Positions 3,339 through 59,170 of a stretch of 64,000 nucleotides of DNA are shown piece by piece. The position numbers and the translations under genes are program-made. Numbering within the stretch: position 1 is the stretch's first letter; every line of letters begins with the position of its first letter. Source of the stretch: an uncultured Chloroflexia bacterium (lineage in GTDB: Bacteria; Chloroflexota; Dehalococcoidia; UBA2247; RBG-13-53-26); the NCBI GenBank assembly GCA_963720375.1, contig CAVRFM010000023.1, positions 18,179 to 82,178 on the forward strand, given 5' to 3'. The notes under the pieces were generated by a model that made no database searches, was not told the origin of the DNA, and worked only from the letters and a program-made list of their open reading frames with translations.

Positions 3339-4208
3339 TTATCTCTTGAGTGCTTTGATGCTGGCCCATCTCGCTTTCCCTTTTGCCAGCACCCGCTGCC
3401 CTTCAGTTCTGAATACGAAGTAGTTCTGCTCAAACCTCTTCAGTAAATCCTTTTCCTGCCGGAACCACAGGTTTTCGCGGGCCTGTAGCCAGTGAGGTCC
3501 CATGGGGATTTCCTCGATTCCCTTCTGGTCGAAGGATGACTCTTGAACCTGACAGATCTCAAGTGAAAAACCAGCCTTTTCGTACAGTTCCTTCAATTGG
3601 GACATGGTGAAGAATCTGAAGTCCGGGCCGTGGGCCTCCTGGAAGGCCTCTTCAATTGACTCATTCAGCCTTTTCTCTTCGCTGTCCGAAGGTTCCTGCA
3701 GCACCGGGTCCAGAGAGAAGAGGTAACCCATTGGCTTCAATATGCGGTGCAGTTCTGCTGCAGCTTTTTCAGGCCGGGTGAAGTGGTGGAAACTCATCAT
3801 GAGGCAGGCCGAATCAAAGACCTGTGGCAGGAAGGGCAGTATTTCTGCTTCCCCCCGAACCAGGAAGAAGTTATCTATATTGCGCTTTAAGATCTTTTCC
3901 CTGGCTACTCTGAGCATACCGCGGCCGGAATCTATGCCGACTACAGAGCCACTAGGAAGTCTGTCATGGAGAGCAATACCCAGTCGGCCTGTCCCTGTCC
4001 CCACATCCAATACCCGATCACTGGCTCCAGGGCGCAATCCATCCATTGTGATGCGGGTCAGAGACTCCAGGGCTGCCATTCCGGAAACACGTTGATCAAA
4101 CTGTAATGCCTTATGGTAGTCCTGATAGTCGATCTCGTTAGTCATTGGAATCAGCCTCCCCTTTGATGATGGTCCTTTACTGTATGAACCGGGACTGTCT
4201 TGGGTCAA
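3339..4208 (-). CDS. class I SAM-dependent methyltransferase
   Basis: VLDVGTGTGRLG motif I (GxGxG) of the UbiE/SmtA-type methyltransferase fold. 289 aa. Confidence 0.65.
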   Translation of the reverse strand: MTQDSPGSYSKGPSSKGRLIPMTNEIDYQDYHKALQFDQRVSGMAALESLTRITMDGLRPGASDRVLDVGTGTGRLGIALHDRLPSGSVVGIDSGRGMLRVAREKILKRNIDNFFLVRGEAEILPFLPQVFDSACLMMSFHHFTRPEKAAAELHRILKPMGYLFSLDPVLQEPSDSEEKRLNESIEEAFQEAHGPDFRFFTMSQLKELYEKAGFSLEICQVQESSFDQKGIEEIPMGPHWLQARENLWFRQEKDLLKRFEQNYFVFRTEGQRVLAKGKARWASIKALKR

Positions 4209-4347: not shown

Positions 4348-4950
4348 ATGAAAGTCATAGGTCTCACCGGAAGCATCTGCAGCGGCAAGAGTACTGTTGC
4401 CGGTTTTCTGGCGAAGCTTGGTGCGGTGGTATTGAGTGCTGACGAGATTGGCCACGAAGCCTTCAGCCCCCATACCGAGACCTGGCAGCGGGTGGTCGAA
4501 GCCTTTGGCAGGGAGATTGTCACCGGCGGTGATGAGATTGACCGGAAGAGGCTGGGGGAGATTGTCTTCAATAACAGCCAGTCTCTGGAGCGGCTGAATC
4601 AGATAATGCATCCCGGCATGCACCGGGTAGCAGAGAAAAAGCTTGAGGAACTGAGACAGCAGGGGGTGGGAGTGGTTGTGCTGGAAGCACCGCTCCTGAT
4701 AGAAGCTAAATGGCTGGACTTGGTGGACGAGGTCTGGGTGGCTATGGCCAGTGAGTCCACCATGGTTCGCCGCTGCCAAAACCGCTCCGGGCTTCCTGAA
4801 TCTCAGGCTAAGGCGCGTATCCTGTCGCAACTTCCTCCGGGGGAGAAGACCAGGTATGCGGACGTAGTGATAGATACTGATGTCACCTTAGAAGAGGTAG
4901 AAGCCAGAGTGAAAGATCTGTGGGAGCAGAGGTTTTGCTCAAAAGGGTAG
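4348..4950 (+). CDS. coaE: dephospho-CoA kinase
   Basis: MKVIGLTGSICSGKST P-loop and overall CoaE architecture, 200 aa. Overlaps the downstream CoA-pyrophosphatase-type Nudix gene. Confidence 0.8.
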   Translation: MKVIGLTGSICSGKSTVAGFLAKLGAVVLSADEIGHEAFSPHTETWQRVVEAFGREIVTGGDEIDRKRLGEIVFNNSQSLERLNQIMHPGMHRVAEKKLEELRQQGVGVVVLEAPLLIEAKWLDLVDEVWVAMASESTMVRRCQNRSGLPESQAKARILSQLPPGEKTRYADVVIDTDVTLEEVEARVKDLWEQRFCSKG

Positions 4951-5537
4951 AAATAGACAAGGAAAAGATCAGGCAAGCGCTCTCCCAACGGGAGAAGATA
5001 GTTGAAAAGCCGGATGGTTTTACTCCAGCGGCTGTGCTCCTGCCGCTCTACGAGGCGGAGGGAAGCTACCACCTTGTTTTCACCAAGAGGACGGAGAAGG
5101 TTCATTATCATAAGGGGCAGATTTCGTTCCCCGGTGGAGGGCGGCACCCGGAGGATAGATCCCTCATGGATACGGCTCTCAGGGAAACCTGGGAGGAGAT
5201 AGGCCTCAACCCCGGGGATGCGGAGATCCTCGGTGAGCTGGATGACTTTGCCACCTATACCACTAATTTTGTCATATCCCCCTTCGTAGCGGCTATACCG
5301 TATCCTTATGAATTCCGAACAAGTCCGGACGAAGTAGAGGAGATAATCAAGGTGCCCCTCTCCGTGCTCCTGGACAAGAACAATTTCACTGAAGAGGAAT
5401 TGCTCCTGGGGAACAGGCCCATTATGCAGTATTTCTATCGCTATGGCGATCAAGTGATCTACGGGGCTACAGCCAGGATTGTGAAGCAATTCCTGGAGGT
5501 TGTGTTCACAAATGACAGGGCTGGCACTAGCACCTGA
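4920..5537 (+). CDS. Nudix hydrolase, CoA pyrophosphatase (NudL-like)
   Basis: GQISFPGGGRHPEDRSLMDTALRETWEEIGL Nudix box. Genomic coupling with coaE. Confidence 0.7.
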   Translation: MGAEVLLKRVEIDKEKIRQALSQREKIVEKPDGFTPAAVLLPLYEAEGSYHLVFTKRTEKVHYHKGQISFPGGGRHPEDRSLMDTALRETWEEIGLNPGDAEILGELDDFATYTTNFVISPFVAAIPYPYEFRTSPDEVEEIIKVPLSVLLDKNNFTEEELLLGNRPIMQYFYRYGDQVIYGATARIVKQFLEVVFTNDRAGTST

Positions 5538-5680
5538 ACATCCCACGTTCCATCACTTGAAGCCAACCTCTTCTGGCCTCAATCCTTTGTGGTAGAACTT
5601 CAGGCTGCTCCCCTTTGTATCCAGGCTGAAGTAGCATGATATAATCTCGCAGAGGATCTTCTCTAATTCACTAAACCCAA

Positions 5681-6196
5681 TTGCACAATGAAATGAAATA
5701 CAGAGTTGAACATTTCTTCTGTAGCCCATGCCTGCTAAAGAATGTGGATGAAATTAGCGAGGTCTACTCGTGTATAGATCGCATAATGTGGCATTCTGAG
5801 TTCGTGCTCGAGTTTAAGGGTAGGAGATATGAGCACCAGCAAGCATACAACAAAGCACTTGAGATAGAGTTCTCTAGCTATGGATGGAAGCCACACCCTC
5901 TGCTGGTTGACCAACCCAGGCTACTAGGAGACTTTCAGAAGAACAATGTATTCGTTGAGATTCAGTTTGGCAACAGTGCTACAGTCTACAGGGATTACTA
6001 TAAGTTCCACTACGGTTTGACGCACAACCTTCTGGCCCTAGCCGTGTTGATAGTCCCAACTACCCCAAAGAAATTCTTCCCCACTCGTGCTTCCAGTGTG
6101 AGTAACATGGCGGAATTTAACCTGGCCGACAGGTACTTTAAGCTGCTGCCTATCCCGGTGCCTATTCTTCTGATTGGACTACTACCAGAGAACTAA
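5681..6196 (+). CDS. putative PD-(D/E)XK nuclease, BglII/BamHI-like restriction-endonuclease fold (tentative)
   Basis: VFVEIQFGN resembles the E-x-Q/E-x-E catalytic motif of BglII/BamHI-family enzymes, recalled from memory and unverified. The gene sits in a lower-GC islet. Confidence 0.3.
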   Translation: MHNEMKYRVEHFFCSPCLLKNVDEISEVYSCIDRIMWHSEFVLEFKGRRYEHQQAYNKALEIEFSSYGWKPHPLLVDQPRLLGDFQKNNVFVEIQFGNSATVYRDYYKFHYGLTHNLLALAVLIVPTTPKKFFPTRASSVSNMAEFNLADRYFKLLPIPVPILLIGLLPEN

Positions 6197-6236
6197 AGTC
6201 TGAGGCATGGACTATACTTGCGAAGGGGGTTTCTAG

Positions 6237-6935
6237 TTGATGCAGCCTGGAGACATTTTGTCCTACCTTCAGATGTGCTCGCAGGAAGGAGTGAACCTCC
6301 AAAGGGGAATGAATTATCACCTGCGTGGTGGACTGAGCGTTATCCTCATGAGCTTGCGACCAAGAGCACCGTATGCAGACAGAATTGAGGATAATGGCCG
6401 AGTCTTGATCTATGAGGGCCATGACCTACCAAGGCAAAGAGGTAGTCTTGATCCTAAGATGGTTGACCAGCCAATGACGAATCCAAATCATACACTGACC
6501 CAGAATGGCTTGTTCTATCAAGCGGCGATGAGTTATAAGCAAAAAGGTGGTCAGCCCGAGCGTGTGAGAGTCTATGAGAAGGTGCGCCCTGGGATATGGG
6601 TCTACAATGGGTTGTTCAAGCTAGTTGATGCTTGGCAGGAGAAGGACAACTCTCGCAAGGTTTTCAAGTTCAGATTGCAAATGCTGGGTGATTCCGAAGA
6701 CTCGGTCACAACACAAGAGGACATCGATCACACTCGTCTCATTCCAGCATCAGTGAAGCTGCAGGTGTGGCAAAGGGATAAGGGGCGATGCGTCATCTGT
6801 GGAAGTAGCGACAACCTTCATTTTGACCACATAATCCCCTACTCAAGAGGAGGTTCTTCATTGGTGGCTGCTAACATTCGGCTACTATGTGCCAGGCACA
6901 ATCTGGCCAAGAGAGACAGGATAGAATACGCCTAG
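6237..6935 (+). CDS. HNH endonuclease with N-terminal putative DNA-recognition domain (Type IV-like candidate)
   Basis: C-terminal CVICGSSDNLHFDHIIPYSRGG...NIRLLCARHN is a clear HNH motif. An N-terminal domain of about 150 aa is of unknown type (possibly SRA/PUA-like). Confidence 0.45.
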   Translation: MMQPGDILSYLQMCSQEGVNLQRGMNYHLRGGLSVILMSLRPRAPYADRIEDNGRVLIYEGHDLPRQRGSLDPKMVDQPMTNPNHTLTQNGLFYQAAMSYKQKGGQPERVRVYEKVRPGIWVYNGLFKLVDAWQEKDNSRKVFKFRLQMLGDSEDSVTTQEDIDHTRLIPASVKLQVWQRDKGRCVICGSSDNLHFDHIIPYSRGGSSLVAANIRLLCARHNLAKRDRIEYA

Positions 6936-7030
6936 CATATACCTTATCCTCCCTCATAGTCGTCTAAGAATCCCCTTTGTATCCAAGTTTGGGTTGGGAT
7001 GGTACGCTGAGTAACTGATGTGGACTTAGC

Positions 7031-7768
7031 ATGGTAGCGAATCCGAAGGATGCAGCTACCCTGATCCTGTTGCGCAGTGCCAGGCGATCTGAATCAGGGA
7101 TCGAAGTCCTCATGCTGCAAAGGCATGCCAATAGCGCGTTTATGCCTGGTGCTTATGTCTTCCCTGGGGGCATGGTGGAAGTGGCGGACTATGCACCTGA
7201 GGTGGAGCGAATCTGCCATGGGCTGAGCTTCGAAAAGGCGCGGGGTATTATCAATAGTGCTTCCCCTCCTGAGAGGGCGCTCGGATTCTTCGTGGCCGCC
7301 ATCAGGGAGACGTTTGAGGAGGCGGGAATTCTTCTGGCTTGCAGGGAGTCCTCTGCATTGGCAGCTCTCGATGAGGAGCAGAAGGCGCGGTTTGCTGGGT
7401 ACCGTGATAAAGTACACGGTGATCCCGTTGCTTTTATGCCGATAATTGAGCAGGAGGGGCTGAAGCTGGCGACAGACAGCCTCTGCTACTTTGCCCACTG
7501 GATTACTCCGGAGGCGTCTCCTATTCGGTTTGACGCCCGTTTCTTTGTGGCCTCTGCCCCGCCGGATCAGGAGGCTTGTTCTGATGGATTGGAGACGACT
7601 GTGGCTAAGTGGATTTCACCTCAGGAGCTACTGGAAGAACACCGAAAAGGGGCGTTGTTTCTGCCTGTGCCCACGCTGTCCAGCGTGTCAACCCTGGCCC
7701 GGTTCTCCAGAGTTGACGAAGTGATTGCCTCGACGCGTGGTAAAGTGATACATGTTGGTCATGGATGA
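7031..7768 (+). CDS. Nudix-family hydrolase
   Basis: MPGAYVFPGGMVE...IRETFEEAGIL Nudix box. The 3' half lies inside the 395-bp direct repeat. Confidence 0.55.
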   Translation: MVANPKDAATLILLRSARRSESGIEVLMLQRHANSAFMPGAYVFPGGMVEVADYAPEVERICHGLSFEKARGIINSASPPERALGFFVAAIRETFEEAGILLACRESSALAALDEEQKARFAGYRDKVHGDPVAFMPIIEQEGLKLATDSLCYFAHWITPEASPIRFDARFFVASAPPDQEACSDGLETTVAKWISPQELLEEHRKGALFLPVPTLSSVSTLARFSRVDEVIASTRGKVIHVGHG

Positions 7769-17241: not shown

Positions 17242-18606
17242 GTGAGTGTTGCGGAAAGTGCCGAGATAAAGATACCAGCCGGAAGGGAGTATCAGTTGCC
17301 GACCGACCCTGATCATCTGTGGGATGGGTTGAAGGATATCGGGTTGGGGATAAGATGGGTAGCTGAGGTAAAAAAGGCCGACATGCAAATTGAGCTGTCG
17401 GGGCCAAAGTGGGAATACAAGAGTTACACCATCCTTGAGATCGTAGAAGAACCGGGGAAGGTCAGGAACGGCATAGTTAACCTTGTTGGCCCGGATATAC
17501 ATGAAGTCCCGCCTGGGAGTTCCTTCCCTATGGCATGGGACATCAAGGTCTATGGCCATGGGATAACCCAGAGACACCGGGAATACATTGAAAGACAAAT
17601 GGCCATGTCATTACATGGTATAGAGGGCTATATGGCCTTTGGCTCATTCCAGGCCCCCTGGATGCGCTTCAGCAAGGCTATCGTTGGACGACTCACCTTT
17701 GCGAAGCTGTGCCAGGTCATACATGCCTACGTCAAGACCGTTGTCCCGCAGGTGGAGGCGATGGAGTTCCGCTGGATCATTGCATCGGAGGAAGTTGGTG
17801 GCCTCAAGCTGATTGAGCCACTTTACAGGTTGGGTATCCAGAGGCTGAAGGCGCAGGAGCTGTCGGTCTCTCTTGAAGATGCTGATGTGGATATCTTCTA
17901 TGGCTGCACTATCTGCAAGTCGCTGGCCCCCAACCACGTGTGCGTCATTACACCGAGCCAGATACCGTACTGTGGCATCCTCTCCTATAATGGAGCGCAG
18001 GTGACGGTGGAGCTTGATCCGGAGGGCTATATCTTCCGGATGAGCAAAGGCGAGTGCAAAAATGAACAAATGGGCAGCTACACCGGTGTGGATGAGGCAG
18101 TCTACGAGAGGTCTAACCATCAGATAAAGCATGTGAATGTCTTCAGTGCCATAAAGTATCCTACTACCAACTGCGGTTGCTTCGAAGGGGCGGCATTCTA
18201 CATTCCTGAAGTAGATGGCCTTGGCCTGGCTATAAGACGGTACATTGGGGTAACTCCGTTGGGCGTAAAGTTCTCGCGTCTGGCCGGCATGATTTCGGGC
18301 GGCTCTCAGAATCATGGAAATAAGGGCGTATCCATGCGGTCCATGCAAAGCAAGACCTTTCTCAAGGGCGATGGAGGTTGGAGCAGGATAGTGTGGATGC
18401 CCGCCGATTTGAAGAAGGAAGTCGCGGAATACATTCCCGAAGAGATCTACGATAAGATTGCCACTGAGCAGGATACCGTTGATCCTATCGAGCTGAAAGA
18501 GTTTCTAAAGAAGAAGAAGCATCCGATAGTAGAGAAGTATTGGAAGAATGGCGAACCACAGCCACTGAAAGTACCACTCCCCGGAGCGAAGTGGCCCGAC
18601 GAATAG
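17242..18606 (+). CDS. cdhC: acetyl-CoA synthase catalytic subunit, archaeal short type (CdhC/AcsB-like), copy 1
   Basis: 454 aa. Contains the A-cluster Cys-Gly-Cys motif (NCGCFE) plus upstream Cys residues (CTICKS...CGIL). Confidence 0.75.
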   Translation: MSVAESAEIKIPAGREYQLPTDPDHLWDGLKDIGLGIRWVAEVKKADMQIELSGPKWEYKSYTILEIVEEPGKVRNGIVNLVGPDIHEVPPGSSFPMAWDIKVYGHGITQRHREYIERQMAMSLHGIEGYMAFGSFQAPWMRFSKAIVGRLTFAKLCQVIHAYVKTVVPQVEAMEFRWIIASEEVGGLKLIEPLYRLGIQRLKAQELSVSLEDADVDIFYGCTICKSLAPNHVCVITPSQIPYCGILSYNGAQVTVELDPEGYIFRMSKGECKNEQMGSYTGVDEAVYERSNHQIKHVNVFSAIKYPTTNCGCFEGAAFYIPEVDGLGLAIRRYIGVTPLGVKFSRLAGMISGGSQNHGNKGVSMRSMQSKTFLKGDGGWSRIVWMPADLKKEVAEYIPEEIYDKIATEQDTVDPIELKEFLKKKKHPIVEKYWKNGEPQPLKVPLPGAKWPDE

Positions 18607-18622
18607 CCTTTGGAGGTGGACT

Positions 18623-18838
18623 ATGGGAGAGAAGACCTGCGGTGTTTGTCAGAAGAAGGTAGCGGAGTTTGCATGTAGTGTGTGTGGCGTACCTCTGTGT
18701 GCTGAATGTGTTCGAGAGGTAGCCATAGAAAACCCTGGTCAGAGAGTTCTGGGTGTATTAACCAGCCCTTTGAAGTCCGGAATGAAGAAGCAAAAAGTAT
18801 GTGAGAAATGCATGAAGGAAGTGGACTTTGTTGAGTAG
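18623..18838 (+). CDS. Cys4x2 zinc-ribbon small protein, copy 1
   Basis: 71 aa with four CxxC pairs (CGVCQ, CSVCG, CAEC, CEKC). A paralogue sits at the same position in module 2. Confidence 0.6.
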   Translation: MGEKTCGVCQKKVAEFACSVCGVPLCAECVREVAIENPGQRVLGVLTSPLKSGMKKQKVCEKCMKEVDFVE

Positions 18839-19120
18839 CGCGGCTCCTTCTTGCTGTTGTTTTGGTGACCCTGTAATTTACAGCAAGTCACTTGATTGCC
18901 GAGAGGCTTTGACTTATTTGCTGGTGTATTCACTTTCTCAAGGTTCTTAAAGACGAAATTCAGTGGTATTTCGAACACGACATTGAAGAAGATCTCTACA
19001 CACTCTGCAGTGAATACCGGGAAGGTCTGCCAGGTGAATAGAGGATATATGTGTTCTGAATCGGTCGTCAATTGTTTGTTCTGCTGACTCAATTAAGCGA
19101 TATCTGGGAGGGAGAAAGCT

Positions 19121-21622
19121 GTGAAAGATAAGAGAATTGCTCATGTCGGATCTCTGGAGGTCGATATCAGCACAGTCGTGCGTGACCCGCGCGGTCATGA
19201 AGACGAAATTGTCGAGATAATGGAGAACGACTTTGTTGAGGGCCGCCATAGTAATTTTGGAGGATGGATAACTCTACTGCCCGATGCGGCAGACATAGCA
19301 GAACTGGATTATGCTCTGTTGAGCAGGTATCCGCCGTTATACACTCAGCCCAATGGTGTTTGCACTGACTGTGGCCTGGGCCCCTGCAACTTGAAAGAGG
19401 GTCAGGGAAAGTGCGGACTGGATATGGAGGCTTTCCAGGGCAGGTTAAGCTTACGGAAAGCATGCCGGGGTTGTATGACTCAACTAGTGGCCAGCCGACA
19501 ATTGCTGAACTACGCTCTCAAACGCTGGCCGGAGGATACGCCTGTCAGCATGGGTGAGATTCTCGGTATCTCAGATCATGCTCCTGCCATAAGCGTGTTA
19601 TCCGGGATACACGTAAAGACTTTAAGAGATCTTAACAGAGCGCTTTCTTATGGAGAGGAACAACTGGCCAAGCTCTTTCAGGCGAGTTATTCGGGCACTG
19701 GAACGGCGGTGAATTTTGAAAGCATGGTGCTGCATGCCGGGTCTGTTTTGCTCCTCACCATGGGTGTGGCTGAGCTGCTGAAGATCTCCTGCTATGGCTT
19801 TATCAGTGCTGCCAATCAGCCACTGGAGGCGATCGAGCAGTTTCCTCCTGCCACTTTAAATGGTGGGTGGGCATCCATGGAGAGTGGGAAGCCTGTCATA
19901 GCCTTTGTTGGGGATGACTTCCTGCCGGCATGGTGTGCCATCGATCATATGAAGCAGAACGGTCTGACAGAAAAGATTGAGATATGCGGCATGGGTTCAG
20001 CCGGTGATGACATAGTGAGATTCTACGATAGGTGCCGGATCGTGGCCCCGATGGTGAGGGCGCCAAAGGCGATCAGAAATGGCCTGTTTGATGTGGTTGT
20101 GGTCAGTCCAGGATGTATTCCCCTGGACCTTCTATCCCAGGCGGAGCGTGTCGATAGCAAGGTTATATGGGTTGGTCACAATGGAATCAGCAATCTAGCG
20201 GATAGCACGGATGAGCCATCAGACAAGATAGTAGAGGCCTTACTTCATGGAGGAAAGGCAGTCTGGATCAGGGACGTAGAGAAGGCTGGTGAGGTGGCGG
20301 TGAAGTTGGCACAGAAGGTCAAGAGAAGTGGTAATTACATTATCTCTGACGATGAAGCAATAAAACAGGCAAAGGGCCATAAGCAGGATTGTGATATTTG
20401 TTCCAGTGTCTGTCCCAATAATCTGCCTGTATCCAGGGCGGTCAGAGAATTGGGTAAGGGTGACTGGAAGGGTTTCTTCGAGGTGGAGAAAGGATGCAAT
20501 TTCTGCGGCAAATGTGATGAGGCCTGCCCCAGCAAGGTTCAACTGCGCGATATCATTGTGGCTGCCGAGAGAAAGCAGGCCGGCACCGATAAATTCATAA
20601 TGAGGCCAGGCAGGGGGCCGATATCAATAACTGAGCTGCTGCAATCTGCTTTCGCAGTAGGCTGGGGCAGCATACCAGCCATGGTGACCATCTTTGGTTG
20701 CGGCGATGCCAAGAAGGAGGAGATCGCCTGGATAGCCAGTGAGTTGCTTAACGGCGGTTGCATGGTCTTTGTGGCAGGGTGTGCCGGAGCTGAAGTAGCT
20801 CGATCTTTCAGCCAGGCGAAGAAGAAGTACCTCTTTCAAGAATATGCTGGCACTTGTGCCTCGAGAAATATTGTGAATTGCGGCAGTTGCTCTGCTATTT
20901 GCCATGCTGTCCCGATGTATCTCATGCTGCGGCCTTCTGGTGGCATTCCTCTGTATGGCAATCTACCACCGCTGGGAGATTCCATCAGTCTTGGTGGTGC
21001 TCAGTCTGTGATCATGTGGGGGGCATTGCCGGACAGAATGTATGCGGTGGCAGCTGCCTGGGCTCGGCTTGGATCAACGGTCATTGTAGGGCCTGCCTCA
21101 TCCTCAGGATGGAACCGCTACCTGGTTGGTGATAGATATGATCGCAGCAAGTGGTGGGTCTATCATGGTGAGACGGGTAAGAGGCGTGAGGTTGAACCGG
21201 TAAAGGAACACTGCATTGTGCCCGTGGAAACTAAAGAGGAAGCGTTGACTATGCTGGCAAGGTCTGTGTTGAATGTAAAGGACTACAGAGAGAGCCGAGC
21301 TACTCACCTGGAGGTGATGATTGACTACTTTGAGCGCTTCTATCAGCAGTTGCCGGAGGATTGGCCTCTCTTTGTGAGGTCAGATTTCGAACTGCCGCCG
21401 AGATACAGACGACGCATGGTCAATCTCCTGGGATCCGAGTATGGATGGGAGACTGAAGGTGTGAAGGTTAAGAGAGCAAAGAATAGAGATGGCAAGCTAA
21501 TGACCATGTCTGAGTTCGCAGCTAACTATGGGATGGAGCAAGGGATATATAGCACAAGGCTTCGCACCCAGTTACCCCTACGTCTCAGGGGTGTGGCTGA
21601 TGAAGGTAAGTCTAAAAAGTAA
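19121..21622 (+). CDS. cdhA: CO dehydrogenase catalytic subunit, archaeal CdhA-like, copy 1
   Basis: 833 aa. N-terminal CTDCGLGPC...GKCG Cys cluster. Two internal ferredoxin motifs (CDICSSVCPNN; CNFCGKCDEACPS) are typical of archaeal CdhA. Adjacent to cdhB and cdhC. Confidence 0.65.
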   Translation: MKDKRIAHVGSLEVDISTVVRDPRGHEDEIVEIMENDFVEGRHSNFGGWITLLPDAADIAELDYALLSRYPPLYTQPNGVCTDCGLGPCNLKEGQGKCGLDMEAFQGRLSLRKACRGCMTQLVASRQLLNYALKRWPEDTPVSMGEILGISDHAPAISVLSGIHVKTLRDLNRALSYGEEQLAKLFQASYSGTGTAVNFESMVLHAGSVLLLTMGVAELLKISCYGFISAANQPLEAIEQFPPATLNGGWASMESGKPVIAFVGDDFLPAWCAIDHMKQNGLTEKIEICGMGSAGDDIVRFYDRCRIVAPMVRAPKAIRNGLFDVVVVSPGCIPLDLLSQAERVDSKVIWVGHNGISNLADSTDEPSDKIVEALLHGGKAVWIRDVEKAGEVAVKLAQKVKRSGNYIISDDEAIKQAKGHKQDCDICSSVCPNNLPVSRAVRELGKGDWKGFFEVEKGCNFCGKCDEACPSKVQLRDIIVAAERKQAGTDKFIMRPGRGPISITELLQSAFAVGWGSIPAMVTIFGCGDAKKEEIAWIASELLNGGCMVFVAGCAGAEVARSFSQAKKKYLFQEYAGTCASRNIVNCGSCSAICHAVPMYLMLRPSGGIPLYGNLPPLGDSISLGGAQSVIMWGALPDRMYAVAAAWARLGSTVIVGPASSSGWNRYLVGDRYDRSKWWVYHGETGKRREVEPVKEHCIVPVETKEEALTMLARSVLNVKDYRESRATHLEVMIDYFERFYQQLPEDWPLFVRSDFELPPRYRRRMVNLLGSEYGWETEGVKVKRAKNRDGKLMTMSEFAANYGMEQGIYSTRLRTQLPLRLRGVADEGKSKK

Positions 21623-21700
21623 ATACGAACCCCCCGCCAGGTTCTGTACCCTGGCACGGTAGTCACGGGAAATAGGGGTTTCTGAACGTAGAAACCGATT

Positions 21701-23101
21701 GTGTTGTGTAGGTTCCACGAAAGGGGTATACAAATGGCTATTCCAGAGGAAGAAGCAGTATCCAAACTCCCACCGGGAAGGATATTTCAGTTGCCGACAG
21801 ACCTTGATCACCTTTGGGACGGGCTGGATGACGTCGGGCTCGGTCTAAGGTGGTTGAGTGAGGTGAAGAAAGCTGACATGCACATTGAGTTGGGTGGGCC
21901 TAAGTGGGACTATAAGATGTTCTCCATCTTCTACATTGAGGAAGATCCGGAAAAGGTCAGGGATGGAGAAGTCAAGTTGATCGGCCCGGACGTTCCAGAA
22001 GTGGCAGCAGGCACCTCATTACCCGGCGGGTTTACGATAAGGATCTATGGTAAACAATTGACTCAAGCACATCAGGGCTATGTATCCAGACAGATAGGAA
22101 CTGCGCTGCAAGGCATAGAAGGATTCATGCTCTTTGGAACGCCGGATGCTCTGTGGATAAGGATAAGCAAAGACGTGGCGAACAGGTTGACCTTTGCCAA
22201 GATATCTCAGTTTTGCTATGCCACCGCGAGAACGCTGATCCCTCAGGTAGATGCCATAGCATTCTTCTGGGCAGTAGGAGCTCCTGAAGTCGGTGGTGTT
22301 GAGATGATAAACCCGCTGGTTACCTGGGCTAAGGAGAAGTTTAAGATCATAAGTGCCAAGGAGCTCTACGATGATGAAGACGTAGATACCTTCTATGGTT
22401 GCACGATCTGCAAATCCCTGGCGCCAAATCATGCCTGTGTCCTTACGCCAAGCGCGCTGCCTTACTGCGGCATCATCGGCTATGATTCGGCTAAGGTAAC
22501 AGCAGAAATAGACCCGGAAGGGTATGTTTTTACTATTCCTAAAGGTGAATGCTTGGATCAGGAGAAAGGGCATTACACGGGAGTCGACCAGGCCATATGG
22601 GAGAAATGCAATCATCTGGTAAAGCGCGTGAACATCTACAGCAGCATAAACTATCCGACTACCAATTGTGGGTGCTTTGAGGCAGCATCTTTCTACATAC
22701 CGGATGTTGATGGTATCGGTCTGGCTATGCGGCGCTATACCAAGATGACACCGCTCGGTGTCAAGTTTTCCACTTTGGCAGGTATGATCTCCGGTGGGGC
22801 TCAGAATCATGGGTTCAAGGGATTGTCGATTGCCGGTATGGCGAGTAAGAACTTCCTGCGAGGAGATGGCGGTTGGAACCGGGTAGTCTGGATGCCTGCG
22901 GATTTGAAGAGGGATATCGCGGATGTGATTCCAGAGGAGGTCTATGACAAGATTGTCACTGAGGAAGAGACTATTGATCCTCTGGAGCTCAAGGAGTTGC
23001 TCCGCAAGAAAGGACACCCAATAGTCAAGCTGTTCTGGAAGAATGGCGAACCCCAGCCATTAAAGTTGCCGCTTCCCGGTGAAGACTGGCCGGATAACTA
23101 A
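21701..23101 (+). CDS. cdhC: acetyl-CoA synthase catalytic subunit (CdhC-like), copy 2
   Basis: 466 aa, about 60% identical to copy 1. NCGCFE A-cluster motif retained. Confidence 0.75.
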   Translation: MLCRFHERGIQMAIPEEEAVSKLPPGRIFQLPTDLDHLWDGLDDVGLGLRWLSEVKKADMHIELGGPKWDYKMFSIFYIEEDPEKVRDGEVKLIGPDVPEVAAGTSLPGGFTIRIYGKQLTQAHQGYVSRQIGTALQGIEGFMLFGTPDALWIRISKDVANRLTFAKISQFCYATARTLIPQVDAIAFFWAVGAPEVGGVEMINPLVTWAKEKFKIISAKELYDDEDVDTFYGCTICKSLAPNHACVLTPSALPYCGIIGYDSAKVTAEIDPEGYVFTIPKGECLDQEKGHYTGVDQAIWEKCNHLVKRVNIYSSINYPTTNCGCFEAASFYIPDVDGIGLAMRRYTKMTPLGVKFSTLAGMISGGAQNHGFKGLSIAGMASKNFLRGDGGWNRVVWMPADLKRDIADVIPEEVYDKIVTEEETIDPLELKELLRKKGHPIVKLFWKNGEPQPLKLPLPGEDWPDN

Positions 23102-23365: not shown

Positions 23366-25871
23366 TTGCTGAGGAGAGAAGTAATGGAGAAAAAGAGGAT
23401 TGCCCATGTAGGGCCTCACAAAGTTGACATAAGTGAAGTGGTGCGTGATCCCCGTGGTATTGAGGATATAGTCACGGAGATACTGGAGAAAGACTTTGTT
23501 GAGAGCCGCTATTCACAATTTGGGGCGTGGTTGAATATCTTGCCCGACGCGGCGGATATCGGTGATTGGGATCGCACTCTGCTGGAAAGATATGTGCCGC
23601 TATATACTCAGCCTCAAGGCACGTGCATTGATTGTGAGTTGGGTCCTTGCAGATCTCAAGGTAAGCAAAGGTAAATGCGGATTAGAGATGGATTCGTTTC
23701 AAGGCAGGCTGAGTTTGCGCAAGGCCTGCCGTGGCTGTATGGGCCAGATGGTAGCTACTCGTCATTTGTTGAACTATGCATTGAAGTTATGGGATGAAAG
23801 CAAGGCTGTCAGCATGGGTGAGCTCTTGACCATGTCGGATGCCTGCCCTCCTGTAGGCACTTTGAGCGGCATCTATGTGAAAACCCTCAAGGACTTGAAC
23901 AGGGTGCTCTCATATGGAGAGGCGCAGTTGGCTAAGCTGATGTCTGCGAGCTATTCAGGCACCGGAGCAGTGGCGGATTTTGAGAGCATGGTGATGCATG
24001 CTGGTTCTGTTCTGCTTCTGGCTATGGGAGTGTCTGAGATGATTAAGGTCGCTTGCTTCGGCTTTACGTCAGCCGCTAACCATAAGATTGATGAACTGGA
24101 GAATTTCCCGCCGGCCAACGTGGTTGGAGGATGGCCGTCCATAAAGGAAGGTAAGCCGGTAATTGCCTTTGTCGGCGATGATTTTCTGCCGGCATGGTGT
24201 GCCATAGAGTATCTCAAGCAGAATGAATTGTTGGACAAAGTCGAGATATGCGGTATTGGCCCTGCAGGTGATGACGTGGTGCGCTTCTATGACAAGTGCC
24301 GCATAATCGCTCCGATGGTGAAGGCGGGCAAAGCTATCAGAAATGGTGTCTTCGATGTGGTTGTAGCTGCGAACGGATGTATTCCTTTGGATATGCTATC
24401 TGAAGCGGCAAGGGTAAAGAGCAAGTTCATATGGGTAGGAGCGCAGGGAGTTGGCAATCTGGTCGATAAGACTGATGAACCTCTGGACAAGATAGTGAGT
24501 GCTCTGGTTGATGGTGAAGAGGCAGCTTGGATTAGAGATGTTGAGAAGGCTGGCCAGGTAGCAGTCAAGGTAGTCCAGCAAGTGAAGAGAACACGGCAAT
24601 TTATTCTAAGTGATGAGTTGGCAGTTGCGCAGGCTAAGAAGTGTAAGGATGATTGTGATCTTTGCTCTAGTGCTTGCCCCAATAGCTTGCCATTATCAAA
24701 GGCGGTCAGACTGTTACGCGGCGGTAACTGGGATGGTTTCTCAGAGGTGGAGAGAGGGTGCTATTTCTGTGGAAAGTGTGAAGAGGCTTGCTCGGCTGGG
24801 GTGAGGCTGCGTGACATAATAGTAGCGACTGAAAGGAAACAAGCGAAGAAGGACAAATTCATTATGAGAGCGGGAAGAGGTCCTCTCCCCCTCACTGAGA
24901 TACTGCAGTCGGCTTTTTCCATGGTCTGGGGTAATGCTCCCGGTATCGTGGTGATAGCGGGTTGTGGTGATGCTTCCCGCGATGATATCGGATGGCTGGC
25001 TCAAGAATTAACCAGACGAAACTGCATTGTCTTTGTGGCTGGATGCGCCGGTGCTGAGATTGCCCGCAACTACAGCGAAAGGAAGGGTAAGTATATTTTT
25101 GAGCAGTACCTGGCTTCTATTGAGCCACGGTCTCTCATCAACTGCGGTGGCTGCACCGCAATTTCCCTGGCGAACAACATGTATATGTACTCGCGTGCTG
25201 CCGGAGGCATTCCTCTCTATGGGGGCATACCAGAGGTAGGCGAAGGGTCACTTTATACTACCTTCACGTTGCTTGTGTGGGGTGCTCTGCCTGACAGGAT
25301 GTATGCAGCAGCAGCAGCATATGCCCGTCTTGGGATAAGGGTTGTAGTGGGTCCGGCTTCGGGTTGGACTTGGGGTCGCTATTTGCCTGGCAATAGGTAT
25401 GATCGGAGCAAATGGTGGGTCTATCATGGAGACAATGGTAGTAAGAGGGAAACCGAACCTGTTCCGGAGCATTTTATTATCCCCGTGGAAACCAAAGAGG
25501 AAGCACTGACCATGATGCCCCACACTTTCTTCAGTACATCTGAGATGAGGGAGGGTCGGGCTGCTCGTCTTGACCTGCTTATTGAGTTGTATCGGCTGTT
25601 CTATGGCCAACTTCCCGATGATTGGGATTTGTTGGTGAGGTCCCATTTGGATATCCCGACTAGGCACAGGATCAGGTTGGTTAAGCTACTTCGGGATGAA
25701 TATGGTTGGGAAGGCGATGGATTGAAGATTACCAAGGCCAGGAATCGTGATGGGAAACTGTTAACCCTGTCGGAATTCAATACCAGCTACGGTATGGAGC
25801 TGGGAAGATACCACTGCAGACTGAAGAGACTATTGCCAAAGAGTGTGAGAGATAGAGAAAAGGGCAGTTAG
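23366..25871 (+). CDS. cdhA: CdhA-like CO dehydrogenase subunit, copy 2, with apparent +1 frameshift at ~23651
   Basis: ORFs 23366..23674 and 23562..25871 together reconstitute a CdhA-1 homologue. The frames join directly after CELGPC (TGC-A-GATCTC). Confidence 0.6.
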
Positions 25872-26365: not shown

Positions 26366-26762
26366 CTTTCCTCCTGACCAGGAGGTCTGAGGGCGTGGTA
26401 ATATTCTTTTCGGTCGGTATGGCTGTCACATCTATCATCTTAAGGTTTGGCAGTTGCGATACCGATGGATCGTAGCTTCCCAGGTAGTTAGAATACAGGC
26501 TGGACGGCATATGGCCTATGCCTTCTTCGATAGCGGTTTCTGATTTTGCTGCCACCACCACGGAGCCTGATTTGCCTCTGATCTCGATAGGGGCGCCACT
26601 CTTAAGCCCCAGCTTTTTCAGATCAGCCGCGGATAGGTGCACCACGGCAGACCTGGTCTGATATTCATCGCCCAATCCATCTCTCTGCCTGGCAATCGCC
26701 TGGTGAATATCGTCATAGGTCACGATGGTCAGACTAATACCCTGGTTAGATGAATCCATCAA
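26358..26762 (-). CDS. fwdD: formylmethanofuran dehydrogenase subunit D-like (molybdopterin-binding domain)
   Basis: 134 aa. Overlaps fwdB by 4 nt. Size and context match the FwdD family. Confidence 0.5.
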   Translation of the reverse strand: MMDSSNQGISLTIVTYDDIHQAIARQRDGLGDEYQTRSAVVHLSAADLKKLGLKSGAPIEIRGKSGSVVVAAKSETAIEEGIGHMPSSLYSNYLGSYDPSVSQLPNLKMIDVTAIPTEKNITTPSDLLVRRKVA

Positions 26763-27982
26763 ATGCTCCCTGCCAATTGTTTCAGGACTTCCTCCTCGGT
26801 AGGCTGATCTACTTTTTTTGGCCCGGCTAATGCTACCTCAGCCCCATCCATTCTTATCATTGAGCCACCGTATTCTACGCCGGGCAGTGCTGTTGGTATG
26901 ACCACATCAGCGGAGATCGTGGTAGGTGTACGGAAGTGATCCAAACAGATGACGTTTATGCCCTGCAGATTCTTCATTATGGACTGAGGCAGAGCTGAAA
27001 ACGGATCTGCCCCCATTATTAGCAGGCATTCGGGGACACGGTTTCTTACTTGTTCCAATAAGGAGAACTCACTTCCGTGAGAAATGCTGCCGGCAAAGCT
27101 TATGCTGTTAACATATCCCGTCTGTTTGTAGAGCGATTGATGGAATCCTCTCATGTTGGCTTCTGCGATCATGGGAATCACAGCAACCCTGGTCGACTGA
27201 CTGAACGTATGTACCATCTTGCTGAATGAGGTGAGATCATTGTCAAGAGAGTAGATCAGGCCGAGCCCGCAGAAGATGACGCAAAAGCGAGATTTTGCCA
27301 CCATTTCTCTGAATTTTCTGGCTTCCTCACGTGCGTTTTGTCCCTCATCGAGGATGGTATTGATGAATCCCTTATCCTGTCCAGGCTTGATTCTGAAGGG
27401 CGGCTTACACATTGAGCTTAACTCAGTCTGTCTAACCTCGACGCAGCTTAGTGTTACCTTGGGGTACCATCCGGCGGGATTATAATCAGCATAGGCATAG
27501 TAAGTGTACTTCGAAAGGTGCCTCGGGTGGGTGTGGGGAGGATTGGCACCCCAGTAGATTAGCAGATCTGCATTATCTTTTACTTCGGAGAGAGAGCATG
27601 TTGGCAGATCCTCGGTAAGGATTTTCTGCATCATGACACCATATGAAAAGGATGAGGCGTCATCGATAGTTCCGCCAAGCCTTTTTGCCAGATCGATGGC
27701 AACCGCCTGTGATTCTAAGGTCGAATTATCAAGACCAAAGACGAGGAGATTCTTTGCCTTGGAAAGGAGGTGCACTGCCTCTTGAATGGCTTCTTCCAAA
27801 GAGCGCCTTTGGCCTCTAATGAGGGCCTCTGCCCGGCGCTGCGGATCGAAGCTGGAACGGAGATAGGTCGCCCCCTTGGCACAGGCGTTCTCGATACGGC
27901 CCAGATTGGCACCGTCGATCTCAACCCGGATATCGTCGCATAGGCAACCGCATCCGGTGCAGACCAAGTTCTGAAAGCTCAA
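26759..27982 (-). CDS. fwdB: formylmethanofuran dehydrogenase subunit B-like (bis-MGD oxidoreductase fold)
   Basis: N-terminal VCTGCGCLCDD Fe-S motif and downstream blocks (DLLIYWGANPPHTHPRH) align with archaeal FwdB as recalled from memory. Confidence 0.65.
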   Translation of the reverse strand: MSFQNLVCTGCGCLCDDIRVEIDGANLGRIENACAKGATYLRSSFDPQRRAEALIRGQRRSLEEAIQEAVHLLSKAKNLLVFGLDNSTLESQAVAIDLAKRLGGTIDDASSFSYGVMMQKILTEDLPTCSLSEVKDNADLLIYWGANPPHTHPRHLSKYTYYAYADYNPAGWYPKVTLSCVEVRQTELSSMCKPPFRIKPGQDKGFINTILDEGQNAREEARKFREMVAKSRFCVIFCGLGLIYSLDNDLTSFSKMVHTFSQSTRVAVIPMIAEANMRGFHQSLYKQTGYVNSISFAGSISHGSEFSLLEQVRNRVPECLLIMGADPFSALPQSIMKNLQGINVICLDHFRTPTTISADVVIPTALPGVEYGGSMIRMDGAEVALAGPKKVDQPTEEEVLKQLAGSI

Positions 27983-58781: not shown

Positions 58782-59170
58782 TTATGGCGAAGCGTCATGC
58801 AGGTTCAGTGATTTGAGACGGGAGTGGCTTGTGGTGGGCAGGTTTGATGGCTTGGACAAGTGATAGAATTCGCTGTCTGCCAGTATGCTGACTTAGTTGG
58901 GAGAGTAGGCAACCTCAACTCATCACCAAAAATCATGCTTGCGGTATTGTGCTTTGCCTAAGCCCCCCTTTGTATCCAGGCTGGTGTTGACACCCTTTGC
59001 CCCACCATGCTATTGTTCGAGCCGATCTGCACCGTTGAGCAAAGTGGATTGTGGCCCGCCAACGCCGCACTATTCGGAGTTGGTACCCTGGGGAGAACTC
59101 GGGGCTACCCTCATCTCCTATTGGAGGAACTATCTCTTCCTGTTTCCGTCGAGACAGGTGATGGAGGGGA

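Follow-up and report, generated by a model that had tools for sequence, protein, structure and literature searches.

Two nuclease genes stand side by side in a 64,000-nucleotide stretch of DNA from an uncultured Chloroflexia bacterium (contig CAVRFM010000023.1; hereafter the window), with no gene for a DNA methyltransferase found to accompany them. What do the two proteins do, and how is the host chromosome spared? A sequence-only reading of this locus had offered three answers: a modification-dependent (Type IV-like) defence pair, an orphaned restriction-modification remnant, or a novel two-nuclease system. We lean towards the first, in that the two open reading frames (ORFs A and B) would make up a modification-dependent (Type IV-like) restriction cassette that lacks a methyltransferase and occupies a variable slot, with a housekeeping Nudix gene on either side. 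Both ORFs lie on the + strand within 5681-6935, between a coaE/Nudix pair (4348-5537) and a second Nudix gene (7031-7768):

ORF A: 5693..6196, + strand, 167 residues; predicted reader-less PD-(D/E)XK nuclease of the BglII/BstYI/BamHI fold, with catalytic residues D80, E89 and Q91 (D-X8-E-X-Q)
ORF B: 6240..6935, + strand, 231-residue SRA-HNH endonuclease; SRA at ~6243-6683, HNH at ~6789-6917

Two predicted nucleases and no DNA methyltransferase found

The product of ORF B had been described from its letters as an unknown N-terminal domain of ~150 residues, guessed to be SRA-, PUA- or EVE-like, followed by a canonical C-terminal HNH motif. Profile searches agreed with both statements: residues 3-149 matched Pfam SAD_SRA (E 2.5e-11; 44 bits against a cut-off of 30.7), identifying the first domain as SAD/SRA, and residues 185-227 matched Pfam HNH (E 5.9e-8; HNH_5, E 6.2e-7). 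In sequence and profile searches of PDB sequences the SRA part aligned with the SRA domains of plant SUVH5 and mammalian UHRF1. Residues Y45, D47 and Y58, inside the stretch aligned with the SUVH5 SRA core, are invariant in 28 homologs, as are the HNH and zinc residues C184, C187, D196, H197, N212, C217, H220 and N221. A flipped-base pocket formed by two tyrosine walls and an aspartate is known from TagI and UHRF1 (PMC6212794), and Y45, D47 and Y58 match it.

An AlphaFold2 model of ORF B (predicted local distance difference test, pLDDT, 72) matched the SUVH5/UHRF1 SRA domains (E 4e-7) and, over an alignment of ~300 columns, ScoMcrA. Model quality was poor in the linker and in some of the HNH domain (HNH pLDDT 32-81), so that the HNH assignment rests on the motifs. 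TagI was not retrieved by ORF B either in a single-sequence search of the PDB (E <= 1) or in a profile search (E <= 0.01), ScoMcrA being recovered by fold comparison; ORF B thus represents a separate sequence subfamily, with membership by architecture. With more than 7,700 matches, of which the best 120 have 66-97% identity, this subfamily extends over Chloroflexota, Dehalococcoidia and Bathyarchaeia. The related enzymes ScoA3IV, TagI and TbiR51I cut DNA containing 5-methylcytosine or 5-hydroxymethylcytosine (5mC/5hmC) as HNH-mediated dimers, without a methylase (PMC6212794, PMC6765204). Judged by its domains and conserved residues, ORF B is very probably an autonomous Type IV nuclease directed by 5mC/5hmC, and taken alone it adds one more unremarkable member to the SRA-HNH family. 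An RNA-guided nuclease was considered and set aside, as the NCBIfam profiles gave only HNH-level IscB/Cas9d matches far below their cut-offs.

ORF A had been called restriction-endonuclease-like from a VEIQFGN-type motif, an assignment borne out by three lines of analysis. The protein, which contains GDFQKNNVFVEIQFGN, matched Pfam Endonuc-BglII (E 1.4e-8). Its AlphaFold2 model (pLDDT 83.9; predicted template modelling score 0.83), searched against the PDB with Foldseek, retrieved at E <= 0.001 only BglII, BstYI, OkrAI and BamHI (E 3e-8 to 1e-4; template modelling score 0.59-0.74), and structure prediction thereby supplied the nuclease fold on which the sequence-only reading depended. Finally, an alignment of 32 homologs showed D80, E89, Q91, N94 and R100 to be invariant, and the motif G-D80-FQKNNVFV-E89-I-Q91-FGN aligned with BstYI TDFVKDRVAIEVQFGK (D119/E128/Q130; BstYI motif TDFVKDRVAIEVQFG). 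Neither Pfam nor the model revealed a reader domain in ORF A, which ends at 167 residues; nuclease and SRA are therefore not on one polypeptide here, and ORF A does not belong to the PD-(D/E)XK-SRA fusion enzymes.

Other collections added little. The NCBIfam profiles gave no match to ORF A, and the PADLOC-DB system models gave only weak generic matches (ORF A to REase_II, E 5.6e-4; ORF B to REase_II/mREase_IV, E 1e-3 to 2e-2). Among the PHROGs, ORF A matched no family and ORF B generic HNH families only; a tblastn search of 72,556 plasmids and 50,697 phages returned no match for ORF A and HNH-domain matches only for ORF B. A phage or plasmid origin of the cassette found no evidence in these searches.

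The absence of a cognate methyltransferase, already remarked from the sequence, held up in the window: no DNA methyltransferase was found by a motif scan of all ORFs of at least 80 residues together with Pfam searches of ten large ORFs, a search that was not exhaustive with profiles. The only adjacent methyltransferase, at 3339-4208 on the - strand, is of the small-molecule UbiE/Methyltransf_25 type (Pfam). The motif scan also picked out two short ORFs and a 407-residue ORF at 26759-27982 (-); the latter was rejected, its (D/N/S)PP(Y/F/W) motif being a chance occurrence with no Pfam match at E <= 1e-5 in a gene that adjoins a Mg-chelatase/VWA gene. The ten large ORFs encode housekeeping enzymes only.

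The same absence runs through the ORF A family. Relatives occur in 43 of 185,579 species genomes and among 196 of 1.84 billion cluster representatives (E <= 1e-3); with ~500 matches, the family is outnumbered ~15-fold by that of ORF B. We collected 119 non-redundant loci, equal to 75 lineages at 85% identity, 68 of which have at least 700 bp of flanking sequence. Within 3 kb of the ORF A relatives at these loci, one of 424 ORFs of at least 150 residues encodes a DNA methyltransferase (a D12-class adenine methyltransferase ~0.9 kb from the relative in locus L018), leaving 118 of the 119 loci without one, and none was seen in the called-gene tables of the family loci. The proteins are strongly conserved: column identity averages 73% over the 32 aligned sequences, and identity is 46-74% across Dehalococcoidia, Methanosarcinales, Methanoperedens, Bathyarchaeia, Syntrophomonadaceae, delta-proteobacteria and Latescibacterota (50-75% between Chloroflexota and methanogenic archaea). 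Cultured carriers of the gene include Methanococcoides alaskense DSM 17273 and Methanolobus vulcani B1d. Public annotation names the relatives of ORF A 'BglII/BstYI family type II restriction endonuclease' and those of ORF B 'HNH endonuclease'. Literature searches on PF09195 and on BglII-like and BamHI-like modification-dependent enzymes found no description of such a family, and as far as these searches show, a methylase-free, reader-linked family of BglII fold is undescribed.

P0377 (1362 residues, matched in 13 stretches) was discarded as a false positive caused by TPR repeats. Searched against Pfam, the N-terminal extensions of more distant BglII-like proteins matched nothing. At two loci an RNase III-like protein, standing alone, is encoded 15-16 nt 5' of a BglII-like gene (L004 5506-5985, 159 residues; L089 396-560, a 54-residue fragment); the L004 gene also stands beside BrxC/BrxD-like and helicase genes.

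Links between the ORF A family and modified-base readers

If no methylase accompanies these nucleases, what does? At 15 loci, representing 10 of the 68 lineages, a reader-HNH gene directly adjoins the ORF A relative on the same strand. The two genes are -35 to +62 nt apart (139 nt in one case with a partial ORF), either of them may come first, and the readers include SRA, EVE and MrcB_N. The partners are as follows:

SRA-HNH: window, L001, L027
HNH-HIT fusion, N-terminus aligning with ORF B (25-26% over 203 residues for L134/L136): L015, L134, L136, L131
HNH_2 protein, N-terminal domain without assignment (303 residues in L031 and L109): L031, L109, L110, L126, L123, L083
EVE-HNH_2: L130
MrcB_N-HNH: L033

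On a neighbour-joining tree of ORF A, the cases linked to reader-HNH genes are scattered over at least eight places. A further reader turns up at four loci of a clade that includes Methanoperedens and ANME-2, where a PLD nuclease fused to the C-terminal domain of DpnI, a methyl-GATC reader, is encoded near ORF A (for example L018 1091-1942 and L020 1124-2029). A 223-residue neighbour in L023 was also likened to the N-terminal domain of the HNH_2 proteins, a weak similarity that did not hold up. The HNH-HIT proteins (326-336 residues; L015 5526-6506, L134 356-1336, L136 1038-2048) consist of an N-terminal region, an HNH domain and a C-terminal HIT domain, a three-part architecture of which we know of no description.

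The most telling evidence for a tie between ORF A and readers is a pair of matching arrangements, one split and one fused. The split one is seen in L003, from a Methanosarcinaceae metagenome-assembled genome (MAG), where a stand-alone SRA protein of 133 residues (SRA_ScoMcrA), with no nuclease of its own, is encoded 75 nt 5' of an ORF A relative. In two cluster representatives, P0381 (330 residues, six contigs) and P0419 (273 residues), an ORF A-like nuclease is fused to an SRA domain of the L003 type. P0381 retains the D-X8-E-X-Q motif, and its C-terminal half is 42% identical to the L003 SRA protein (E 2e-36) and aligns with the SRA domain of ScoMcrA.

How might the pair work? By analogy with TagI and ScoA3IV, the SRA domain of ORF B would flip a 5-methyl- or 5-hydroxymethyl-cytosine of incoming DNA into its Tyr/Asp/Tyr pocket, and the dimeric HNH domains would then cut nearby; the host would be spared, since its own DNA presumably lacks the mark that ORF B reads. 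Unmodified host DNA must likewise be safe from ORF A. ORF A most likely acts in the same modification-directed pathway, because its family is tied to readers by SRA fusion, by an adjacent stand-alone SRA protein and by reader-HNH operons. Either a reader protein, here ORF B, would license or recruit it, or it would itself cut modified DNA only. Taking these ties together with the lack of a methylase, we consider a role of ORF A in modification-directed restriction reasonably probable; its recruitment by ORF B or another reader protein is a tentative suggestion. The analysis shows the folds and motifs, the lack of a methylase, the linkage of the genes, the fusions and the separability of A and B; we infer the substrates, the modification dependence of ORF A and any physical contact between the two proteins.

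These observations favour the Type IV-like defence pair among the three original answers, with ORF B showing the ScoA3IV/TagI architecture and ORF A a confirmed nuclease fold. A more specific proposal, which we put forward only as possible, is that the ORF A family supplies the nuclease module of an undescribed modification-dependent class of BglII/BamHI fold, lacking a reader itself and recruited or licensed in trans by interchangeable readers (SRA, SRA-HNH, EVE-HNH or MrcB_N-HNH), and that the pair in the window would be a facultative heteromeric Type IV enzyme in which the two nuclease active sites differ.

Separability and history of the cassette

A Chloroflexota MAG, L001, is syntenic with the window, and in it the cassette shows 94-97% nucleotide identity, the same as its flanks, and equal synonymous divergence (dS). 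Against L001, ORF A has a ratio of nonsynonymous to synonymous divergence (dN/dS) of 0.22 and ORF B one of 0.10, compared with 0.14-0.21 for the flanking genes. A recent horizontal acquisition was rejected on the equal similarity and dS, and these values, with the low dN/dS, indicate that the cassette has been vertically inherited and maintained.

The region had also been singled out as an AT-richer islet. The dip is real, with a GC content of 0.477 at 5681-6935 against a window mean of 0.513, yet modest, lying at the 4.5th percentile of equal-sized windows (standard deviation 0.025). ORF A (0.458) and ORF B (0.492) are both below the flanking genes (0.52-0.56), and GC at third codon positions is 0.55 in the cassette against 0.59-0.64 in the three flanking genes, so that both measures are lower, by little. 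The compositional argument is weak, because the dip is small and the cassette was inherited vertically with its flanks.

A more distant relative (L147; GCA_017885485.1) shows that the two genes can part. Its gene order is coaE-Nudix-SRA/HNH-Nudix, and at 1386-1405 just the last ~16 nt of the ORF A coding sequence (ACTACTGCCAGAGAAC) remain, with the stop codon mutated, directly 5' of an intact ORF B. The sequence is best read as a deletion scar, ORF A having been removed and ORF B having survived, and since L147 kept an intact ORF B, A and B are separable. In Chloroflexi bacterium RBG_13_53_26 (L146, 3077-4725), the same slot holds a 236-residue protein with no Pfam match and a DUF4328 protein; the interval between the two Nudix genes would thus be a variable hotspot.

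Several observations weigh against a shared modification-directed role. L147 shows that ORF B has no need of ORF A, and elsewhere ORF B homologs without ORF A adjoin a BsaWI restriction-modification system, a GmrSD_N gene or another HNH gene. No recognisable reader is adjacent in ~85% of ORF A lineages, and the linkage that does exist could stem from defence-island clustering rather than function. N94 and R100 of ORF A align with N116 and R122 of BamHI, which we take, from the BamHI-DNA structure, to read the GATC core; sequence-specific cleavage of unmodified DNA by ORF A is thus possible, and GATC is abundant in the window (301 sites).

These points bear first on the view that A and B are independent occupants of a mini defence island, ORF B being a Type IV enzyme and ORF A a solitary nuclease curbed by unrelated means. 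Such independence would account for the unrelated restriction genes beside ORF B homologs, for the loss of ORF A alone in L147, for the many ORF A loci that show no reader, and for the contexts of the ORF A family, which are mobile or defence-like and include integrases, DDE and IS200 transposases, Cas1, BrxC/D and the RES domain. However, the SRA fusions and the split SRA/ORF A pair suggest that nuclease and reader are directly linked in function, overlapping or near-abutting ORFs in both orders in 10 lineages are hard to obtain from loose island clustering, and how a methylase-less BglII-type nuclease spares its host is left unexplained. We therefore regard independence as rather doubtful.

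At the other extreme, A and B could form an obligate heteromeric enzyme in which the SRA domain targets and the HNH and PD-(D/E)XK sites each cut one strand. The tight operon with its conserved spacer, the recurrent juxtaposition of ORF A and reader-HNH genes, and the reader-only protein of L003, for which the adjacent ORF A relative is the candidate nuclease, are what such an enzyme would predict. Against it, L147 kept an intact, conserved ORF B after ORF A was deleted, the ~15-fold larger ORF B family usually occurs without ORF A, and most ORF A genes have no HNH neighbour; characterised SRA-HNH enzymes, in addition, make double-strand breaks as homodimers (PMC6212794). Given L147 and the ORF B homologs found elsewhere without ORF A, an obligate complex is distinctly unlikely. 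Of the novel two-nuclease system proposed originally, what stands is a facultative partnership, compatible with the operonic linkage and the SRA fusions, whereas the obligate version is contradicted by L147. Four loci of another lineage (L142-L145) carry a second HNH gene, encoding 195 residues (~2864-3451 in L142), that precedes the SRA-HNH homolog across a 49-nt gap, indicating that SRA-HNH genes pair with different extra nucleases.

A protective methylase accompanies each of the textbook Type II enzymes BglII, BamHI and BstYI. Could ORF A be another such enzyme, with a BglII/BstYI-like GATC-core site and a methylase encoded elsewhere in the genome or lost? The fold, the catalytic motif and the conserved Asn/Arg pair of the GATC-core type would suit this explanation, as would the public annotation of its relatives and the D12-class gene in L018. 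A mobile family with no linked methylase at 118 of 119 loci is nonetheless unlike the spread of Type II systems, and decay would be expected of a remnant, while the sequences of this family are strongly conserved and subject to purifying selection. As a test for a GATC-core site, palindrome avoidance across the 64-kb window was uninformative: GATC has an observed-to-expected ratio of 0.82, GGATCC occurs 5 times against 13.6 expected, and AGATCT is at its expected frequency (20 observed, 20 expected). We consider a classical Type II identity very unlikely, and the orphaned remnant of the original reading is rejected on the methylase-free loci, the conservation and the purifying selection.

A last alternative casts ORF A as a toxin-like or abortive-infection nuclease, restrained by a partner and freed on infection. 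It draws on a 60-residue AbrB/MazE-like gene that lies 3' of ORF A at a fixed distance of ~55 nt at 15-16 loci, all in one monophyletic archaeal clade (Methanoperedens, Methanococcoides, ANME-2; for example L020 902-1084 and L024 1635-1817, with ~14 further loci). However, the MazE match is weak (E 0.006, below the Pfam cut-off), AbrB-type proteins are just as often transcription regulators, no such small gene was seen beside the cassette in the window or in most other lineages, and ORF A was lost in L147 without the loss of any neighbour, all of which makes a toxin highly improbable.

We return to the favoured modification-dependent cassette and its layout in the window:

coaE: 4348-4950, flank of the cassette (Pfam annotation)
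First Nudix gene: 4920-5537, upstream flank (Pfam annotation)
Upstream 15-nt direct repeat TCCCCTTTGTATCCA: 5609..5623, + strand, exact repeat of 6971-6985; probable promoter-proximal motif
Extended -10-like element TGATATAAT: 5637..5645, + strand, ~45 nt 5' of the ORF A start, read from sequence; putative promoter
Shine-Dalgarno-like site GAAGGGGG for ORF B: 6222..6229, + strand, inside the 43-nt A-B spacer, read from sequence
Downstream 15-nt direct repeat: 6971..6985, + strand, native to the sequence that precedes the Nudix gene at 7031
Second Nudix gene: 7031-7768, downstream flank (Pfam annotation)

The start of ORF A had been listed as TTG at 5681, probably 12 nt too early; ATG at 5693 is the most likely start, because more than 500 homologs have ~167 residues and an N-terminus of MK(Y/F). 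For ORF B, ATG at 6240 is most likely, as its homologs have 230-231 residues. The TGATATAAT element is a putative promoter element for ORF A; it was not reported by a consensus promoter scanner, there being no good -35 at 16-18 nt. A terminator-like site was sought between ORF A and ORF B and none was found, which suggests that the two are co-transcribed; the 43-nt spacer is 100% identical in L001. Upstream, the coaE and Nudix ORFs as listed overlap by 31 nt (4920-4950; 16 nt between the called genes in L001), an overlap that suggests translational coupling of that pair.

Do the flanking repeats record an insertion? The motif (T)CCCCTTTGTATCCA has three exact copies in the window, all on the + strand and intergenic (5609-5623, 6971-6985 and, over 14 nt, 58965-58978), and a two-mismatch copy at 2570-2583; with up to two mismatches there are 4 copies against 0.57 expected. 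Both cassette-flanking copies are kept in L001 (5918-5931 and 7277-7290). The third copy, at 58965, lies just 5' of a promoter-like TTGACA-N18-TATTGT site, and a one-mismatch copy stands 5' of the orthologous Nudix gene in L146, which has no cassette. Because of the copy elsewhere and the copy in cassette-less L146, the repeat is probably a promoter-proximal regulatory motif and not an insertion scar, duplication on insertion being less likely.

Two very large ORFs aside, the remainder of the window is housekeeping, with paralogous genes of the acetyl-CoA synthase/carbon-monoxide dehydrogenase (ACS/CODH) type and genes for a methylmalonyl-CoA mutase and a ClpB-like ATPase. Paralogous CdhC/ACS-beta genes at 17242-18606 and 21701-23101, and two large Prismane/CODH-family genes at 19121-21622 and 23562-25871, were noted; the arrangement in the region 17242-23101 suggests that a set of carbon-monoxide dehydrogenase/acetyl-CoA synthase genes has been duplicated.

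Comparison with known restriction systems

Which known enzymes does the cassette resemble? ORF B shares with ScoA3IV (Sco5333), TagI and TbiR51I the order of an N-terminal SRA domain with a Tyr/Asp/Tyr pocket and a C-terminal HNH beta-beta-alpha-Me domain with zinc ligands, and in all of them a cognate methylase is absent. It differs from ScoA3IV and TagI in being shorter (231 residues), in belonging to a separate sequence subfamily, whose members abound in Chloroflexota and Bathyarchaeia rather than in Actinobacteria, and in its inferred co-transcription with a second nuclease. With ORF B the SRA-HNH family gains a large subfamily of environmental sequences (more than 7,700 relatives) with no detectable sequence similarity to TagI. 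ScoMcrA (SBD-SRA-HNH; PDB 5zmm/5zmn) aligns with the ORF B model, and its type of SRA domain is the one found fused to or beside ORF A relatives; ORF B, however, lacks the sulfur-binding domain, so nothing points to phosphorothioate dependence.

ORF A has the fold of BglII, BstYI, BamHI and OkrAI and the D-X8-E-X-Q site of BglII and BstYI. It is 35-55 residues shorter than these enzymes, lacks a partner methylase in the window and at 118 of 119 family loci and is linked to modified-base readers instead, and its cross-phylum sequence conservation is unusually high. If the modification-directed reading is right, the BglII/BamHI fold would have been re-used for modification-dependent restriction.

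Pairing of a PD-(D/E)XK nuclease with an SRA reader is known from PvuRts1I and AbaSI, in which the nuclease precedes the SRA domain, and from MspJI, AspBHI and LpnPI, in which the order is reversed (PMC6765204). The fusion proteins P0381 and P0419 share the nuclease-then-SRA order of PvuRts1I and AbaSI. In the window, by contrast, nuclease and SRA are on separate polypeptides and the SRA polypeptide has an HNH domain of its own, which would, on the modification-directed reading, provide a natural example of a reader and its nuclease encoded by different genes. Our literature searches found no paper describing a BglII/BamHI-fold nuclease in PD-(D/E)XK-SRA enzymes. On the same reading, ORF A relatives would contribute a further type of nuclease module to the modification-dependent enzymes, a group used for mapping 5mC/5hmC.

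Modification-dependent nucleases standing side by side without a methylase are familiar from the immigration control region of E. coli (McrBC, Mrr). Compared with that region, the cassette is a compact two-gene operon in a housekeeping neighbourhood, not part of a large island, and its pairing recurs across phyla.

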